Shown: positions 2,753 to 20,415 of the stretch, piece by piece
Layout: every line of letters begins with the position of its first letter
Numbering within the stretch: position 1 is the stretch's first letter
IMG/VR virus record: IMGVR_UViG_3300027863_000162
Span: 1-25,472 of that record
DNA length: 25,472 nucleotides
Direction: 5' to 3' (one strand)
Origin: a virus
Taxonomy: Duplodnaviria > Caudoviricetes
Position numbers and translations under genes: made by a program
The notes under the pieces: model-generated
Told to the model about the DNA's origin: nothing
Database searches by the model: none
The model's input: only the letters and a program-made list of their open reading frames with translations

Positions 2753-3658
2753 CTAACGCCCCTTAAATTTTCGGTATCTTGCTTCGAGTTCTCGGTCTGT
2801 CATCATTGTGTAGACCATCGTGCTTTCTATTTTTGCGTGTCCGAGGATATTCATTACGTCCGCGTTCGTCCCGCCTTTCTGAATTATTTCGTGTCCCATG
2901 TGATGTCTGAAGCTATGAGGATTGAGTGCTGGCTTGATGCCTGCTTTGTATGAATAACTACGAAGAGCATCTGTGATGGCTCGTGCGCTTAAGCGGCAGC
3001 CGCTGTTTGAAGCAATGTTAACAAATAATGCGTGTGGATCGATGTGTTTCATTCTTCTGGCTAATTGTTTTTTTCTTTCTAACCATTGAAGAATATTTTT
3101 ATTTGTTTCTTTCGTCCAGAAAATTTCTCTGAATGGGCGCGTGCCTCGCGATTTTTCGGTTTTAATAATTGCCTTCATTCTACTAAAATCTAAATCTTCG
3201 ATATTAAGTGATCGTAATTCGCCTACTCGCACTCCTGTGTCCCATAATAAATTAATGATTGAAAGGTTGCGAACGTGGCGCGGGTCTTTTCCGTCTTTTG
3301 GAATAACAGAAATTATTTTTTGGTATTGCTCTTCGGTAGCGCTGCGTGGAATGCTGGGCATCACTTTGGGCATAGGTATAAGTTGAGGATCAATAACTCG
3401 ATAACCTTGCCGCATGTAAAAATCAAAGAAACTTCTTAGTGCCGATGCTTCGCCAACGAATGCTTTTTCTGTCCAGCCGAGCTTTTTAAGCATTGCGAAA
3501 TAGTCCAAGATATCGTCCAGAATAATATTTTCTATTTCGGCGTCTTTGACAAATAAACAAAACTTACGCAAGTCGTAACTGTATCCTTTGAGAGTGTTTT
3601 TCTCGCTCCTGTAAGAACGCCACTCTATGAATTTATCTATTGCTTCACTTATCCTCAT
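2753..3658 (-). CDS. XerC/XerD-like tyrosine recombinase (integrase or resolvase)
   Basis: Catalytic motifs TGVRVGEL, HSFRH, LGH, VYT; probable ATG at 3658; no arm-binding domain visible. Confidence 0.93.
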   Translation of the reverse strand: MRISEAIDKFIEWRSYRSEKNTLKGYSYDLRKFCLFVKDAEIENIILDDILDYFAMLKKLGWTEKAFVGEASALRSFFDFYMRQGYRVIDPQLIPMPKVMPSIPRSATEEQYQKIISVIPKDGKDPRHVRNLSIINLLWDTGVRVGELRSLNIEDLDFSRMKAIIKTEKSRGTRPFREIFWTKETNKNILQWLERKKQLARRMKHIDPHALFVNIASNSGCRLSARAITDALRSYSYKAGIKPALNPHSFRHHMGHEIIQKGGTNADVMNILGHAKIESTMVYTMMTDRELEARYRKFKGR

Positions 3659-3659
3659 A

Positions 3660-3840
3660 AAGCACGAAACCCGCCGAGACAATCAGCGGGTTCGTGCCGT
3701 TTCCGCAAGAATAAATCTTGCGGGCGTAAAACCGCCACGTGGCGGTAGTAGAGTGATCAGCTCTACCATCGTTAATTGTGGCATAAATTCGCTGTTGTCT
3801 CAACCCCCGCGAGCGGGAGTGACCCTTTCGGGCAGCGGTT
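3660..3840 (-). ncRNA. candidate structured leader RNA upstream of the recombinase
   Basis: GC-rich island with about six consecutive hairpins, including a GAAA tetraloop on the minus strand. Confidence 0.55.
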
Positions 3841-5092: not shown

Positions 5093-5335
5093 TTATTGCT
5101 GCTGTTCCTGTTGTGCTTCTTTACGAAAAATTCCCCATGATAAATCTTTTCGGGTGAATTGTCCTATGATCCAGAGAACCGCTCCGATCCCCTGTAAAAT
5201 AGCAATTATTGCTTCTGTGAATATGCCTTCGTCTAAATCTAAACCGAAGGTGCGAAGAAGCGTCGCCACGATTGCGATGTACATGCCGACGCCTGCTTTT
5301 GAGATTGTTGTAAACATATTAGTTGTAAAGTTCAT
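5093..5335 (-). CDS. putative holin with two TM helices
   Basis: 80 aa, two hydrophobic segments, charged C-terminus, located between two hydrolase genes. Confidence 0.65.
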   Translation of the reverse strand: MNFTTNMFTTISKAGVGMYIAIVATLLRTFGLDLDEGIFTEAIIAILQGIGAVLWIIGQFTRKDLSWGIFRKEAQQEQQQ

Positions 5336-6380
5336 TTAATTTCGACCTTGTTTTTGGACCGACAATGCGACCTCCGAGCGCGTCAAGCTCGGCATCATCG
5401 GCGACTTTATATTTCTTTTGAAAAGCAAGCACTGCTTTGGCGGTGATTGCGCCGTAGTAGCCAGTGCTTTCTGTGTTGATCGGAAACAACCCTTCATATT
5501 TCAAAATATCTTGAAGGGCTTTTACGTCGTTGCTTGTTTTATTGAAATTTAAATCTCGCATAAAATTGTATTTTGGTTTTTCTGTTGTTTGTTCGGCAAA
5601 TTTAAAGTTAATCAAATAAGCGGCAAATGTGTTTCTCTCTTTGTGAAAATCTTCAGTAATAATCCTTCTGCCTTGTATGGCATATTGAATGCCCCAGCTG
5701 TCTTCTATGATTAGGGCTTTTTTGCCTTGATATAAAGTAAAATCTACGGCTGTGACGCTGTGGTGCAGTTTCGGGTCATTGGTTTTGATAGTAGGAACAT
5801 CTAACCATTCGTCGTAGTTGAATTTATACCAAACCATTACTCCTTTGCCTGTGGTCTGGATAATTGAGGCGATTGTTTCGATGTCGCCAATTGGTAGAAT
5901 CACATAATTATTAACTTTGAAAATGGCACCCACTTCTTCCTTGTAATTCTCTATTCTGACTGCGTCCATCTGGGCATCGTTCATGCCTTGTGACGGCGCT
6001 AATACTTCAAGCGTTACGCCTTTACGTGCGATGTTTAGGGCATCAACGCCCCACATACCGCTTGCTGGTTTATTTTGACGACGTTGATAAATATGAGTTG
6101 CTGAAAAATGAACGTAATCGCCGTTTTTTAACCAGTAAAGAATACCAAGAAGTTTCGCCGCTGTTTGCGCTACGCAAGATCCGCTTCCGTTTTGATTAAA
6201 AATCGGAAACTTTCGCCATTCTTCTGGCTTCTTCTCTATCCAGTTGACTGGATTAATACTTGCGACAATTTCTTGAAATTGATAATCTTTCTGGCGCTCA
6301 TCTGGCGTACGGGGATCTTCCAGTGCGCCTGTGCCGAATTGCTGTTTTTGAAATAAATTTTTAAACCAGTTTATGTTCAT
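5319..6380 (-). CDS. papain-like (C1) cysteine peptidase with a C-terminal peptidoglycan-binding domain; putative endolysin
   Basis: QNGSGSCVA, HHSV, EDSWG; PGBD-like DVKALQDIL...GYYGAITAKAVLAFQ...VGPKTR. Confidence 0.8.
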   Translation of the reverse strand: MNINWFKNLFQKQQFGTGALEDPRTPDERQKDYQFQEIVASINPVNWIEKKPEEWRKFPIFNQNGSGSCVAQTAAKLLGILYWLKNGDYVHFSATHIYQRRQNKPASGMWGVDALNIARKGVTLEVLAPSQGMNDAQMDAVRIENYKEEVGAIFKVNNYVILPIGDIETIASIIQTTGKGVMVWYKFNYDEWLDVPTIKTNDPKLHHSVTAVDFTLYQGKKALIIEDSWGIQYAIQGRRIITEDFHKERNTFAAYLINFKFAEQTTEKPKYNFMRDLNFNKTSNDVKALQDILKYEGLFPINTESTGYYGAITAKAVLAFQKKYKVADDAELDALGGRIVGPKTRSKLNELYN

Positions 6381-7845: not shown

Positions 7846-8331
7846 TTAAATTTCTATCTCGACCTCAAATGTTGAATCCTCGCCTGATGATTTAGTGTAA
7901 GGGCTACCAAATAAGGCGCGGTTGAATAATCGACCTGATGAAAGTGTTCCCGATCCGTCAATAAATGTGCCAAATTCTGTATATGTCCCATTTGGAAGCA
8001 AGGCATCTGAAAAGAAAAATCTAAGTGTTAATAAGTTAGACGATATTGTATAACCTGAAATCGCGGCGCGGACGGTTGGAGTTTGAAGTTGTGTATCGCT
8101 GTTAGATGGCGGATTTGTACCAGTGCCAATATCTGCGTGTGTAATGTTTAAACTGTATGTATTGTCCCCAGCTAATCTTTTAAGAATCAAATTTCGCCCC
8201 GTGTTTTCGCCTAAAACAATCAGATTTTTTGTCCACTCCGAAATTCGCAGAATCTGATTCGTCCCTGCCTTTGTGGTGATAACCCGTATCCTACCTTTTA
8301 TTTTTAGTTGTTCATTTTCTTTTATGACCAT
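7846..8331 (-). CDS. minor tail / baseplate protein
   Basis: IGTGTNPP..SDTQL and E.G.F..LFNR pattern; synteny; probable ATG at 8331. Confidence 0.65.
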   Translation of the reverse strand: MVIKENEQLKIKGRIRVITTKAGTNQILRISEWTKNLIVLGENTGRNLILKRLAGDNTYSLNITHADIGTGTNPPSNSDTQLQTPTVRAAISGYTISSNLLTLRFFFSDALLPNGTYTEFGTFIDGSGTLSSGRLFNRALFGSPYTKSSGEDSTFEVEIEI

Positions 8332-9737
8332 GTTCCAAAATTCCAAACTAAATCATTCGACCCGCTAACGCCCCATTTGTATGGTGGCGATTTTTTGATT
8401 GGAGTTTTAAGTGTGTCAAAAATTGACATCTCTTCATAAAATGTATCTAATCTTTGAAGTACTTCGTTTGTTGCAATCGTAATGTTCTTTTTGTCTTTAC
8501 TTAGTAAATCAACCATCATGTCTGTGAGAGTAATGTCGCCTGATGCTATCATGCTTACTTCATACTCTAAGTGATCACTGCCTCTTGCTTTGGCATTAAT
8601 GCGATTGATTTTGAAAAATTTATTAAGTCCGCGAATATCGCTACTAACAAGAATTTTTTGACCTGTGCGAAGTCCCGCTCTTGTTGTTTTAAATCTTGCT
8701 TCAAAAACACTTTCAGCAAATTTTTTAAGTTCTGCTTTGGCTCTGGTTTGGGCTTCGGCTATACTTGTAATGCTTTTATCAACTATCGCGTGCTGAAACT
8801 CGCCATATGTTGAAATTGAAATTTGATCTCTGACCGAAGCGATGATTGGAATAAAAGCGTCGCCATAAATTACAATTGTGTCTCCGCTGGCTGGCGCTGT
8901 CGTGAACCTAATAAATTTTTCATTGAAGTTATAAAGGCAGTCTACGGTGTTTGGATTGGTTTGTTGGTCTGTGCCGATTGTTTGAACGACCCCGTTCTTT
9001 TTGACCGTGATGTTATCGTATCTATAAGCCAGTTGAAATGTTTTGCGCGTACCGTCTCCGATGTATTTATCAACAGAATCTGCTTCACTTATAGTTTTTT
9101 TGTATTCCCCGCCTCTTACAAAAACGTGATTTTTAAGATTTAAGATTGTTTTATTAATTTCGAGAGTTTGCCATTCAAAATTTCCGCTGGTGTCATCTAA
9201 ATTGAAAGGTGCGACGTTTGTTTCTTCGTCAAAGAAGTGAATGTCTTTATTTGCGTCTACATACCAATCCCAACCAATTTGATCAGCTAATTGAGTTAAG
9301 GCGCGGCTTACTTGTTCATAATTAAATTTTATTGACCCGACGGTTAGGTTATCTCCTTTGACATTGTTAGTTGTAAATCCACTGGTGAAGGTGTTGATGA
9401 TATCAAGCACGATTGATTTGGCGCTCTGGTTCGCATAGGATTTGGTTACAAGTTTACCGTCAAGTTTAGCGCTCCAATCTTTACAGCGACATTCGTAACC
9501 GATGAGTTTTCCCCCGATAATTTTTTCATTTCTTTCTACTAAAATTCCACCGAATATTTTTTCGCCGTTTTCTAACAATTCAATCGTATCACCAAGATCT
9601 GGAATAGTTTTCGCGCCTGTCTTTTTAATCAGAAATTCAAGCCGATCGACTTCCTTTGTCAAAACCGAAGTCCAAGATAATGACGACCAATCAATTGAGC
9701 TGCTTCTATCTACATTGTTAATTTTTAGCGTGAGCAT
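8322..9737 (-). CDS. tail-tip hub protein with an inserted GDG beta-domain
   Basis: Directly after the tape measure gene; hub-like L.QLA..GWDWYVD..K.IHF; inserted domain at 8862-9071. Confidence 0.75.
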   Translation of the reverse strand: MLTLKINNVDRSSSIDWSSLSWTSVLTKEVDRLEFLIKKTGAKTIPDLGDTIELLENGEKIFGGILVERNEKIIGGKLIGYECRCKDWSAKLDGKLVTKSYANQSAKSIVLDIINTFTSGFTTNNVKGDNLTVGSIKFNYEQVSRALTQLADQIGWDWYVDANKDIHFFDEETNVAPFNLDDTSGNFEWQTLEINKTILNLKNHVFVRGGEYKKTISEADSVDKYIGDGTRKTFQLAYRYDNITVKKNGVVQTIGTDQQTNPNTVDCLYNFNEKFIRFTTAPASGDTIVIYGDAFIPIIASVRDQISISTYGEFQHAIVDKSITSIAEAQTRAKAELKKFAESVFEARFKTTRAGLRTGQKILVSSDIRGLNKFFKINRINAKARGSDHLEYEVSMIASGDITLTDMMVDLLSKDKKNITIATNEVLQRLDTFYEEMSIFDTLKTPIKKSPPYKWGVSGSNDLVWNFGTWS

Positions 9738-11042
9738 TTATAGTTTTAATTGATATTTAATGACCTTTGCGATGGCGTTTCCGAATTTTTCTGCTATTTC
9801 CATGTCAGTGTAAAAATCACCCTGTAAGTTAATCGTAATACCTCCCGTGCCTAAACCACCTAATCGGTTTAATGGAATAATTGCTTCTGGACCCGCTTCG
9901 CCGACCATGCCTAAGATTGGCTTGGTAACAATTCCGCCTTCTTGAAAAGGAATTATCTTGCTTATGCCTGATTTAATTGTTCCGCCAACAGATGAAACAA
10001 GTGATTTTGCCGCATTGACAGCGCTTGATAATGCGTTAATTAGTGATTGAACTACTCCTAAAACCGAGTTAACCGCATTTTTAATAAAATCAACCACGCC
10101 TTTGGTTATATCCTGAATTCCCAGAAAGTTTGTTTTCCACGCTGTATAAAGTGCTGTGCCAACGCTAATTATGGCTGAAATAGCGGCAACTATTAGTCCA
10201 AATGGACCAAGAGCCGCTAAAGCAGTTGACGCGGCTACAACGAACCCTGCTCCAACCATGCCAATCAATAAACTACCAGCAATGGTTAGAAGTGTGTTGT
10301 GTTTTTCTAATACCGCATTGATGCCGCCTTGTGCCTCGACCCATCTTAATATCGATTGAATAACCTCTTTAATAAATTCTACAAATGGTTGCCCTATTGC
10401 TTCCTCTATCTCTCCAAGATAAGTTCTAAGTGTTTGAGTCATACCAGTTAGTGTTTCTGAATATCTTTCTGCTTGCCCTTGTGTCGCTCGCATAACTGAT
10501 TGAAGGATTGTTTGTTTGGATGCGTGTTCATCTATGTCAATTCCGAATTGTTTAAGTAATCTTCCACCGCCCTGAAAAGCCAAAATTAATGCGTTCGTTG
10601 CCTCTTCTAAACTGATGCCTCTAAAACGCGCTAAATCCATTGCCGCCTGAAACGCTTGCATTGTTAGATTGATGTCTCCAGTTGCCTGAAGGAGACGCGC
10701 CATACTCACTGCCGATTCTTCATTATCAAAACCAAATCGCATCGCAGCATTTGCCGCTTCTAAAATTTGACCCCTGTATTGTTGAAGTTTTGGCGGTAAT
10801 GAACTCATAATTGCGTCAAACTTTGCCATTTTTACTTCTGATTCGGCAAACGCATTAATGCTTTTTAGTAAAGTTGCGCCTGCTATCGCCGCCAACGATC
10901 CTGCTAATATACCCGCTTTTAATCCAGCAAAGTTAAGCGAGCCCCCTAAATCAGAAACATCATTTGAAAGCCGATTTAAAGCCGTCGATGCTTCATCTCG
11001 GACTTTCACTAAGATATTAAGTTGGCTTGTTGCTTCCGACAT
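9738..11042 (-). CDS. tape measure protein (short, 434 aa)
   Basis: Helical Ala/Gly-rich sequence with a hydrophobic middle; C-terminal FQEGGIV...GEAGPEAIIPL; follows the tail chaperone. Confidence 0.9.
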   Translation of the reverse strand: MSEATSQLNILVKVRDEASTALNRLSNDVSDLGGSLNFAGLKAGILAGSLAAIAGATLLKSINAFAESEVKMAKFDAIMSSLPPKLQQYRGQILEAANAAMRFGFDNEESAVSMARLLQATGDINLTMQAFQAAMDLARFRGISLEEATNALILAFQGGGRLLKQFGIDIDEHASKQTILQSVMRATQGQAERYSETLTGMTQTLRTYLGEIEEAIGQPFVEFIKEVIQSILRWVEAQGGINAVLEKHNTLLTIAGSLLIGMVGAGFVVAASTALAALGPFGLIVAAISAIISVGTALYTAWKTNFLGIQDITKGVVDFIKNAVNSVLGVVQSLINALSSAVNAAKSLVSSVGGTIKSGISKIIPFQEGGIVTKPILGMVGEAGPEAIIPLNRLGGLGTGGITINLQGDFYTDMEIAEKFGNAIAKVIKYQLKL

Positions 11043-11058
11043 TGTTTTGTGTTATAAT
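11030..11058 (+). promoter_or_regulatory. antisense promoter of the moron gene
   Basis: TTGCTT (11030-35)-N17-TATAAT (11053-58) with an extended -10 TG; overlaps the tape measure start codon. Confidence 0.7.
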
Positions 11059-11090
11059 TTTTTGGTCGATAAATAATGTGTTGTTTTTTT

Positions 11091-11519
11091 ATGGCTTTTA
11101 ATCAAGTCAATCAAAAACTCTCGGGTCTACAAATTTTTAAGGTTTTGAGCGGCATTTTCTTGTTTGCTATTATTTTGCTTATTATTATTGCCATATCCTC
11201 TAATAAATCCCCAAATAAAACCGTAATCCCTCTTCAAGCCAAATCTATTTCTAAAACTACGTTTACTGATCTGGATCGCTATAAATCTAATTACATAATT
11301 GAACGGTTTGTAGCTGATGGTGTATCAAATATCCTTTCACTTTCAAATAGTTACGATGATGTAACTGTTAAACTGAATGGAGAAATTCAACTATTTTCTA
11401 CCTGCCCTCATCAAACATATAATCTTTGCTACGATTTTTCTGGCAAACGATTCATCTTTCGATCCGCCCCATTTAAAGACTCTGAAATAACTGTTCGTGG
11501 TTTTCCTTTGTCAAAATAA
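11091..11519 (+). CDS. moron: single-pass membrane protein with a tail-tip-like domain; candidate superinfection exclusion factor
   Basis: Only plus-strand gene; TM segment VLSGIFLFAIILLIIIAIS; C-terminal domain aligns with the hub protein; ATG at 11091 (alternative 11076). Confidence 0.8.
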   Translation: MAFNQVNQKLSGLQIFKVLSGIFLFAIILLIIIAISSNKSPNKTVIPLQAKSISKTTFTDLDRYKSNYIIERFVADGVSNILSLSNSYDDVTVKLNGEIQLFSTCPHQTYNLCYDFSGKRFIFRSAPFKDSEITVRGFPLSK

Positions 11520-11527
11520 TTTTTTTA

Positions 11528-11743
11528 TTATTTTGTTGTTGTCCGTCTTTTGATTTCTTCACTCTCCGCTTTTAGCAATGCGCGAATTATATCAATGAAC
11601 CAACTCGGCTGATTTTGGTATTCCTGATAAGTCCATTTCATTTCTCGGCAAATCAGCGCGGCAATCATTTCTTCTCTTAATTCTGCCTTCCCTAAGGCGA
11701 AATAGCGTTCCCATGTGTACGCTATTTCGCCGTCTGAAAATTT
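11528..11743 (-). CDS. frameshifted extension of the tail assembly chaperone (gpGT-like)
   Basis: -1 frame reads FSDGEIAYTWERYF...ICREMKWTYQEYQNQPSWFIDII...TTK*. Confidence 0.8.
   Translation of the reverse strand, partial: KFSDGEIAYTWERYFALGKAELREEMIAALICREMKWTYQEYQNQPSWFIDIIRALLKAESEEIKRRTTTK
11696..11743 (-). promoter_or_regulatory. programmed -1 frameshift signal
   Basis: A AAT TTT heptamer (11743-11737), 5-nt spacer, perfect 13-bp hairpin (11731-11696). Confidence 0.85.
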
Positions 11744-12051
11744 CCTGACTTTATTTTGTTTGCTTCTGCTACGACAAAATCGTATTCTTCTGGCGCACTA
11801 TCTAAAAGACGATCAACGATGTTTTCTGAGCTGCCATCATAAGAAATAACCGCAACCTCAATAAGTTTCTTTTCTGCTTCATCCATAACTGAAGCGGGTA
11901 TTTCATCTTTAACTTGCGCCGTATTACTTTCTATTTTCATTTCTTTTAAGAAGACGTTTCTCAATTCATTTCTTTCTCGGGCATTAAGGAAGGTTTTCAT
12001 AACGATCTCTTTTCCAGATGGTGTTTTTATTGTTTTGGTTTCTCTTTCCAT
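11722..12051 (-). CDS. tail assembly chaperone (gpG-like)
   Basis: Acidic 109-aa protein between tail tube and tape measure, with a slippery site at its 3' end. Confidence 0.85.
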   Translation of the reverse strand: MERETKTIKTPSGKEIVMKTFLNARERNELRNVFLKEMKIESNTAQVKDEIPASVMDEAEKKLIEVAVISYDGSSENIVDRLLDSAPEEYDFVVAEANKIKSGNFQTAK

Positions 12052-18210: not shown

Positions 18211-20415
18211 TTATTCAATAGAAATTTCTTCTGGTCTAATGTAACAGCGGCAGGAAGGATGAAGTGGCGGGTATTCAACGTCGCTATAATCAATCGCCAG
18301 TATTCCTCCTTCATTGCCTGTAACCTCATCTCCTTTTTCAAAGAATTTTTCTTCAATATCTATAACTTTGCCGTGCATTGAAGCGCAGAATTCGCAAACT
18401 CTTTCGTCCGCTGCTGTGTACCATTTAATCGTCTTAACTACTCCGCTCTGCTGCCACGCTTCTTTCGTTGCCGCGTTAGCGATTCTGAATGTTTCGGTTC
18501 TGGCTACTTGCTCAGCGCGGACTTCATCGCTGAAGTCATACACCTGAGAAACAAGATCTTTTAACTCCTCAAGGCTTGCGCCCTCGCTCAATCCTTGCTC
18601 TAATTTATCCCTCAAAAGAGCTATTGTGGTTTCGTTGTAACTACGAGACATAAGCTCGAGCGCCCGCTCAATCGCTCGGCGTACTTCTGGCGTTATCGGA
18701 TCGGACAAATCAATGCCTAAAAGCGATGCCGCTTCTCTCGCTTCTTTTTCAAATAAATCAGTGGCTATTGGACTTGATAAATCTATAAGCAAACTTACCC
18801 ACTCGTCTTTATTGAATAAATCGTCTTCGTTAATTGCTTTTGCTGTTTTTATTGCTTTTTCAAGGTTCGCGATCACTTCTTTTTTCTGATCGACATTAAA
18901 TTTTTTTATTGCTTCCGCCTGCGCTTTTTCGTATGGTGTAACTCTGTTAACGAATGCTTTCCATAAAATTTCGTATTCATCGTCTGTCATATTGGTGATG
19001 TTTTTGCTTTTCTGGTCTTTCGTCTCTTTTATTTTTTGAGATGTTTCTTCCATTTCTTTGGCTAATTTTTCGGCTATTGATTTCGCTATTTCTTTTCTTT
19101 TTTCTGCACTTCTTGAATATTGAGTTTTTCTTCTGGCTGGTTTAGCGCTTCCACTAGTCTTGGCTTGTGGTCTTTTTGGCGCTTTTCTCTCTTCTGGCTT
19201 GCCTAATGGAACGCTTGAAAAGTCAGTCATTACGCTATCTCCGCCAGTAATTGGAGGTAAGCCCTCTTCTTCTCTGACTTCGTTCACACTTTTGTATGGC
19301 TTGTTACCGAGCGCGGCTTGATATTCTCTAATTTTTAATTCGCGGTCGTCTGGCACTGGATCAACGAAGTCAAGAAATAAATCGTCTCCATAGCGCGGCA
19401 CTAAAAATTCGTTTAGGTAAGAAACAATCATCTGGACCTTCGGTTTAATCGTTCGTGCCGCGAACACATAATTGGCGGTTTCGGCTGTGGCTCGGTTTGT
19501 TTCACTTTCTGCTGTTCCGAGAATTGTTTTTGGCACTCTAAATCCTGCGAGAATTTTGTCTCTCATCACCTGCTGTAAGTTGTAGAAATCCATATCTTTC
19601 GGGTTATCTGATAGTGGCTGATAATCTGTACCTTTTGGCAAAGCAGCAACCTGATAAGAATTTTCCGCTCCTTTATAAATTGCTTCAAAGGATTTTTTCA
19701 AAATTTCTAATTGTTCTTTTGTGAAAGCGGTTTCTGATTTTAACAACCCACTGAGCCTTGCTCCGTTTTTGAAATAGTTAAGATTTACCTGGCTGGCATA
19801 ATTATCAGCATTTATCCAGTCAAAAATTGCCTGAACCGTTCCTATTCCTTCGTATGGATCGTTAGGATCTGGATATTTGAAATGGATAACTTGATATGGT
19901 TTCAAAGTTTTAGTATTGTTACCAACTCTGTATTCGTAGCCCGAAATAAAATCTGGGAGGTTCTTTTTAATCGGTTTAACAAAGCGTGGGTTCAAAATAT
20001 AAATTGCACTTGGTGCGTCATCTTCTTTCTCTACTCCGTCTAATAGCCAGTAAGCATTGCCCGTGAGTTCAAGGTGGGCGGCGGTGAGGTATTTCAATTC
20101 AAACCCTGTTTGGAATGAATTGACGCCGTCCAGCAAATCAAGTAAAGGGTGTTGATAGATTTCTTTCTGGTTTGATTCTCGGTCTAATTCAAAAAGTTTT
20201 AGCTCAACATTGGCTACGGCTTCAGCAATAGCGCGAATGCAAGCATAAACCCACCCTGTGTTTAATGCCATTGCTTTGTCCGCCGCGATTTTCTTTGTGC
20301 CTTGCCAGATAAAAAATGAATCGGAGCCGCCTAAACCATAAGACAGCGGCAAGTTTTCAATGTGCGCTTTTTTAATTACCCCTATCTTGTTTAGAAATTC
20401 ATTAAAAATTGACAT
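18211..20415 (-). CDS. HK97-family portal fused to a MuF / SPP1 gp7-like head morphogenesis domain
   Basis: VYACI..IA, GNAY, VIHF, NEVRE..GLPP, then RA..VARTE, K.W, D.RVC.FC, PPLHPSCRC. Confidence 0.93.
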   Translation of the reverse strand: MSIFNEFLNKIGVIKKAHIENLPLSYGLGGSDSFFIWQGTKKIAADKAMALNTGWVYACIRAIAEAVANVELKLFELDRESNQKEIYQHPLLDLLDGVNSFQTGFELKYLTAAHLELTGNAYWLLDGVEKEDDAPSAIYILNPRFVKPIKKNLPDFISGYEYRVGNNTKTLKPYQVIHFKYPDPNDPYEGIGTVQAIFDWINADNYASQVNLNYFKNGARLSGLLKSETAFTKEQLEILKKSFEAIYKGAENSYQVAALPKGTDYQPLSDNPKDMDFYNLQQVMRDKILAGFRVPKTILGTAESETNRATAETANYVFAARTIKPKVQMIVSYLNEFLVPRYGDDLFLDFVDPVPDDRELKIREYQAALGNKPYKSVNEVREEEGLPPITGGDSVMTDFSSVPLGKPEERKAPKRPQAKTSGSAKPARRKTQYSRSAEKRKEIAKSIAEKLAKEMEETSQKIKETKDQKSKNITNMTDDEYEILWKAFVNRVTPYEKAQAEAIKKFNVDQKKEVIANLEKAIKTAKAINEDDLFNKDEWVSLLIDLSSPIATDLFEKEAREAASLLGIDLSDPITPEVRRAIERALELMSRSYNETTIALLRDKLEQGLSEGASLEELKDLVSQVYDFSDEVRAEQVARTETFRIANAATKEAWQQSGVVKTIKWYTAADERVCEFCASMHGKVIDIEEKFFEKGDEVTGNEGGILAIDYSDVEYPPLHPSCRCYIRPEEISIE

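Follow-up and report, generated by a model that had tools for sequence, protein, structure and literature searches.

HK97 gp15 is a superinfection-exclusion moron, a small membrane protein encoded between the tail assembly chaperone and tape measure genes, and its exclusion activity depends on the incoming tail (PMC3594210). Tab and Tai are prophage-borne, tail-directed proteins that act on virion assembly inside the cell (PMC10884400, PMC11364771); the gene for Tab is a moron in reverse orientation with a promoter of its own, and its product blocks tail assembly (PMC10884400). In these reports, exclusion and tail-blocking morons either come from bacterial genes (gp15, from the YebO family; PMC3594210) or have no known domain (Tab; PMC10884400).

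Here we describe a moron in the same slot as gp15 whose product is predicted to carry a relative of a tail-hub domain on a membrane anchor. Both its position and its probable function have precedents, whereas a literature search that covered few subscription journals found no virion hub domain on a membrane anchor.

A reversed gene between the tail chaperone and the tape measure

The window, by which we mean the whole stretch of DNA analysed, is a 25.5-kb virus record (G000) whose minus strand encodes terminase, portal, capsid, tail tube, tape measure, hub, fibre, lysin and a tyrosine integrase. Although the record is catalogued as linear with 74% completeness, its positions 5-130 and its final 126 bases are identical and cut the same gene, so it is probably the entire genome, circular and about 25.3 kb long. 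The integrase, and relatives lying within contigs of 204 kb and of 811 kb, make a temperate phage likely. Patescibacteria titles are attached to 7/8 of the hub relatives found in genome contigs (three of them on contigs of 93-204 kb), pointing to an ultra-small CPR (Patescibacteria) bacterium as the likely host, and DNA of the phage is contained in hot-spring and microbial-mat sequencing runs. The listed runs that contain it include no RNA run, which bears neither way on expression. The features of the window used below are:

2753-3682, minus strand: tyrosine integrase (PF00589, E 6.7e-28)
7846-8328, minus strand: 160-aa gene after the hub, tail-fibre-N-terminal-like (phrog_4176, E 4.9e-8), conserved after the hub in relatives; its product is a candidate partner of the hub
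8322-9737, minus strand: tail hub protein, 471 aa; YqbQ-like, below the Pfam cut-off, with PHROG tail and baseplate hub matches
8862-9074, minus strand: inserted domain of the hub (hub residues 222-292), found in 19/19 hubs aligned
9738-11042, minus strand: tape measure, 434 aa, with PHROG tape measure matches; its start codon lies inside the predicted moron promoter
11030-11058, plus strand: promoter-like cassette, TTGCTT (11030-11035), 17 nt, extended -10 TG-n-TATAAT (11050-11058)
11076-11519, plus strand: moron ORF, 147 aa; transmembrane (TM) anchor, linker and hub-type jelly-roll domain
11124-11198, plus strand: single TM helix, about residues 17-41 (helix 12-36 of the AlphaFold model, in P0001 numbering), predicted N-in, C-out
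11244-11258, plus strand: extra beta-strand in the linker (strand 52-56 of the model); a similar motif occurs in many family members
11280-11507, plus strand: hub-insert-like beta jelly-roll domain, residues about 69-144
11528-11740, minus strand: downstream frame of the chaperone, stop at about 11528-11530; conserved in relatives, convergent with the moron
11722-12051, minus strand: likely tail assembly chaperone, named from gene order (after the tail tube gene)

The moron ORF fills the space from the stop of the chaperone read-through frame to the tape measure start (11042). All six other plus-strand ORFs of at least 100 aa overlap minus-strand genes, bearing out the initial annotation, which had described a sole plus-strand gene between chaperone and tape measure. 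The public gene call (P0001) starts at the second ATG, position 11091, giving 142 aa. The ORF has a GC content of 0.327 vs 0.411 for the window, a difference to be read with the caution that membrane proteins are AT-rich anyway. Neither Pfam nor PHROG returned a match for the ORF, and tblastn found none among 50,697 phage records, so that homology to gp15 or YebO is not supported. In many relatives the two chaperone frames overlap where the first one ends, at a conserved GGAAATTTT stretch, likely a programmed frameshift.

The protein was earlier proposed to consist of a TM helix, a linker and a C-terminal domain, and hydropathy (highest 19-residue window at residues 23-41, mean 3.06), the AlphaFold model (mean pLDDT 93.2) and the domain alignment given below all agree with this layout. 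The stalk between helix and domain is about 33 residues long, and Cys110 and Cys118 of the domain form a predicted disulfide.

Sequencing runs gave some view of variation at the locus. In run X3 (window 11315-11570), one low-depth contig had 0 substitutions across 257 bases of the moron, and the remaining seven contigs listed differed by about 0.6-6% over the moron region; the substitution-free contig is a weak hint of either recent exchange or strong constraint. Reads joining across an absent moron were not seen in four DNA sequencing runs.

The slot holds different cargo in related phages

We found 37 distinct related loci containing both flanking genes. In most of these (30/37) the gap between the genes is 106-313 bases, below 350, identifying the gene in the window as a moron at the position of HK97 gp15-type morons, as initially annotated. 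The gap exceeds 350 bases in the other seven, and six of these hold a reversed ORF of at least 55 aa:

L015 3804-4280, reversed: TM helix and tRNA_anti-like OB fold (PF12869, E 1.5e-24)
L050 1818-2105, reversed: TM helix and zinc ribbon; this is the closest phage, with a hub 82% identical
L031 5509-6099, reversed: two-TM protein
L020 5524-5835, reversed: small soluble protein, no Pfam match
L022 5512-5775, reversed: small soluble protein, no Pfam match
L025 5014-5690, reversed: a protein that we take to be receiver-like

Since the cargo differs between related loci, the slot behaves as a swappable moron site; the TM-anchored family of the moron occupies it in 0/37 of these loci. The moron shares with gp15 its place between tail assembly chaperone and tape measure and, by prediction, its coding for a small membrane protein, but differs in lacking a Pfam match, in its virion-derived domain and in lying on the opposite strand. 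The six unrelated reversed genes form a ready list of candidates for exclusion or defence genes of CPR-type phages.

A promoter-like cassette spans the tape measure start

The TTGCTT-N17-TATAAT motif with an extended -10 TG that had been noted upstream of the moron is present as described, and TGnTATAAT occurs nowhere else on the plus strand of the window. Its -35-like box lies within the first tape measure codons and agrees with the consensus at only 3/6 positions, which is why a consensus promoter scan (4 sites found vs 4.8 expected) did not list the cassette. The better support is comparative: by eye across 21 loci, L050 and L023 hold other, unrelated genes in reverse orientation yet have the same hexamer, the 17-base spacing, a TG-extended -10-like box and a near-identical flank, in a cassette that again spans the tape measure start. 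In the same inspection of 21 loci, L022 and L031 had TTGACA just upstream of the tape measure start, and a pattern search of 14 short-gap loci found no extended box there.

In the window (11030-11058), L050 and L023 the -35-like box is supplied by conserved tape measure codons, so that an incoming gene would need only the -10 part; such a ready-made box may explain why the slot is a hotspot. A terminator scan (2 sites found vs 1.3 expected) placed no hairpin directly after the moron stop and one weak plus-strand site at 11873-11898.

The moron domain is homologous to a domain inserted in the tail hub

Moron residues 75-142 and hub residues 222-292 are identical at 21/71 aligned positions, with a single 3-residue gap (E 6e-9), upholding the hand alignment of the initial annotation (21/70). 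The alignment score of 95 compares with a mean of 29 and a maximum of 51 for shuffled sequences (0/5000 shuffles reach it), and the hub was the top non-self match of the moron among 262 six-frame segments. No similarity between moron domain and hub insert was detected at the DNA level by blastn. One aromatic residue in the connector upstream of the hub insert also falls within the homology to the family. The hub inserts themselves show weak Pfam matches, to DUF2460 in 7/19 rows and to Phage_T7_tail in 4/19.

The fold core is common to hub inserts and the TM-anchored family described below. Four residues that are nearly invariant in hub inserts (Tyr, Asp, Asn and Glu, query positions 91, 110, 120 and 123) are replaced in the family; these signature polar residues may make contacts within the hub or form a ligand face, and their replacement weakens the case for strict mimicry of the hub.

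A fold comparison, a step proposed in the initial annotation, matched the domain to phage tail modules. In the predicted model it is a small beta jelly-roll resembling XD2/XD3 of T4 gp10 and CBA120 TSP4 and the docking jelly-rolls of T7-fibre-N type. Whereas XD2/XD3 and the N-terminal domain of T7 gp17 are parts of virion proteins, and the XD domains act as trimers, the moron domain has a TM anchor, an added strand and, in the family, often a cysteine pair, at 13-19% identity. The DUF2460 insertion domain (RcGTA g12, R4C Dit) differs in belonging to the distal tail protein rather than to a hub or a membrane protein, and reaches only 12-14 bits with the family profile. Complex prediction with three copies each of the 160-aa post-hub protein and the ectodomain scored 0.00, giving no answer on binding or trimer formation either way.

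An unnamed family of membrane-anchored hub-like domains

An exhaustive phmmer scan with the moron returned 20 proteins, comprising the query, two spurious, non-domain matches that were left out (P0012 and P0023) and 17 proteins with TM helix, linker and domain (32-43% identity). A profile search added three further members, giving an unnamed family of about 21 TM-anchored proteins, each with a TM helix predicted ahead of the domain; P0018, whose domain is identical to that of P0020, was left out of later counts. Word-indexed searches missed the rest of the family, finding only the moron protein itself and hub fragments. A profile built exclusively from hub inserts scored 21/21 family proteins. 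Charge bias favours an outward domain in 18/21 and the reverse in 0, and together with the paired cysteines predicts that the moron domain faces outside the cell.

Two members come from named sources, assemblies of Ca. Liptonbacteria and Ca. Wildermuthbacteria. Viral contigs yielded no other TM-anchored member, and the one scan of metagenomes yielded nothing beyond a locus with 100% identity to the window. Genome searches (1443, overlapping) gave one further TM-anchored member, at locus L072, located in an island of about 9 kb directly after tmRNA, with no tail genes in the 20 kb read and no att duplication in the 20 kb examined. One of the island's TM-anchored proteins is a staphylococcal-nuclease homologue. 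With two known contexts for 22 members, the contexts seen indicate a family that is rare and not tied to the tail slot, and it appears to be mobile. Several members carry a fusion to a generic bacterial domain (no Pfam family; atlas score 0.95), and that domain also stands alone on a TM anchor beside an integrase, suggesting that CPR mobile elements shuffle surface modules. The two elements are:

L072 2111-12293: tmRNA-linked island with serine recombinase, MT-A70 methylase, RelE-type pair and four co-oriented TM-anchored proteins including the family member
L077 8054-10869: small element with tyrosine integrase, 155-aa gene, TM-anchored protein with the fused-type domain and 221-aa gene

Trees placed the anchored domains in one clade throughout: with support of 100/99 in the first (21 anchored vs 28 hub rows), 97/94 in a second with five outgroups and 95/88 in a third under a mixture model. 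These trees rest on 73-85 columns and five outgroups, with both sets gathered from the window's own proteins. A clade of the moron with its own hub was rejected (AU p 8.75e-6); for the family together with the hub group of this phage, a clade was neither shown nor rejected (AU p 0.23). The initial annotation had the phage duplicate its own hub domain. The rejection of the own-hub clade and the separate clade, in which the moron groups with 20 other TM-anchored proteins, rule out a recent duplication in this phage. The expected co-variation of moron and own hub found no support either: the member at L072, the sole relative with context, has no tail genes nearby.

The family is nonetheless closest, among the domains tested, to the hub inserts of this phage group. 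With a family profile built without the moron, 19 CPR-type hubs scored 22-68 bits, led by the hub of L050 (67.8) and the phage's own (66.2). The comparison scores were 32 bits for a hub from a Thermoanaerobacterium phage, 20 for a protein of an archaeal virus and 12-15 for domains of the DUF2460 and T7-type fibre kinds. Profile scores gave no support to short-linker hubs as the source. The moron domain is 51% identical to one family member vs 30% to its own hub, and up to 35% to other phages' hubs.

Possible functions of the anchored domain

Slot, promoter cassette, topology and tail-tip origin together lead us to read the moron, tentatively and at somewhat less than even confidence, as an envelope defence that lysogens express and that derives from a hub domain. 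A single, ancient recruitment would have taken the domain from a hub of this phage group, and it would since have moved between mobile elements. Made from the prophage, a single-pass membrane protein would show the hub-derived jelly-roll outside the cell, its topology being predicted, and would block related phages as they adsorb or as their DNA enters. It would either occupy a surface partner of tail tips or catch an incoming tail protein. Since the signature polar residues of the hub are replaced, the ligand of the moron may have shifted from that of the hub.

The moron might instead be generic envelope cargo, CPR elements placing small beta domains on TM anchors for a role, such as envelope remodelling or scaffolding, no longer related to tails. 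The slot does hold unrelated cargo, including a TM-anchored OB fold and a TM-anchored zinc ribbon, TM-anchored proteins of a similar type occur in two small islands with a recombinase or an integrase, and the hub-signature residues are lost; however, the core motif is kept in members 33-43% identical to the moron, which suggests a specific retained function. We consider this reading rather unlikely, and it is compatible with a defence role, which it does not exclude. Somewhat less likely still is an adhesin of lysogenic conversion, a tail-tip module on the surface of an episymbiotic host that binds glycans or proteins of a partner cell or surface and has no part in defence, because the short stalk would keep the domain near the membrane, protein-docking modules give the best fold matches and the precedent for the slot is exclusion.

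Strict tail mimicry, in which this phage would have copied the domain from its hub and kept the copy in step with its tail, could appeal to the top ranking of the own hub and its closest relative by the family profile and to the clade with this hub group that was not rejected. Against it stand the rejected own-hub clade, the greater identity to a family member and the equal or better match of other hubs, the lack of blastn similarity to the own hub insert and the different slot gene of the closest phage, L050, and we regard it as highly improbable. An inward-facing blocker of tail assembly of the Tab/Tai type, which would sequester new fibre or hub partners of a superinfecting phage, is similarly hard to credit: a docking-module fold would suit sequestration, and Tab offers the precedent of a reversed moron with its own promoter (PMC10884400), but charge bias and paired cysteines predict an outward domain for the moron. 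Nor does any evident counter-defence gene adjoin the moron.

Host-expressed domains of viral entry proteins that block related viruses are familiar from endogenous retroviruses, whose domesticated Env proteins (Fv4, suppressyn) act through receptor interference. A broader version of the envelope-defence reading, which we consider rather unlikely, is that a tail-hub domain underwent a single domestication by CPR mobile elements, which fixed it to the membrane, stabilised it by a disulfide and now use it for portable defence, by receptor interference or as a tail decoy, against the source phage group, a prokaryotic counterpart of Env restriction. The likeness to Env lies in the concept alone, the retroviral system being eukaryotic and unrelated in sequence, and both blocking by the moron and receptor binding by the hub insert are conjectural.

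If the envelope-defence reading is true, a virion tail domain displayed as an outward-facing membrane protein would mean that structural parts of phages are recycled for defence. To our knowledge, almost nothing is known of the resistance of CPR bacteria to phages, and the family, together with a swappable slot that has a shared promoter cassette, offers concrete candidates. The anchored copy would also offer a way to find the binding partner of the conserved hub insert. Even as an adhesin or generic cargo, the family documents an unnamed recruitment of a virion domain to the membrane.

Other features of the genome

The hub gene directly follows the tape measure gene (window 8322-11042), with no separate distal tail gene, and a Thermoanaerobacterium phage has the same order of tape measure and hub and a related insert. 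The putative lysin (window 5319-6380) joins two domains, a papain-family C1 peptidase and PG_binding_1, and the portal (window 18211-20415) is fused to a Phage_Mu_F domain.
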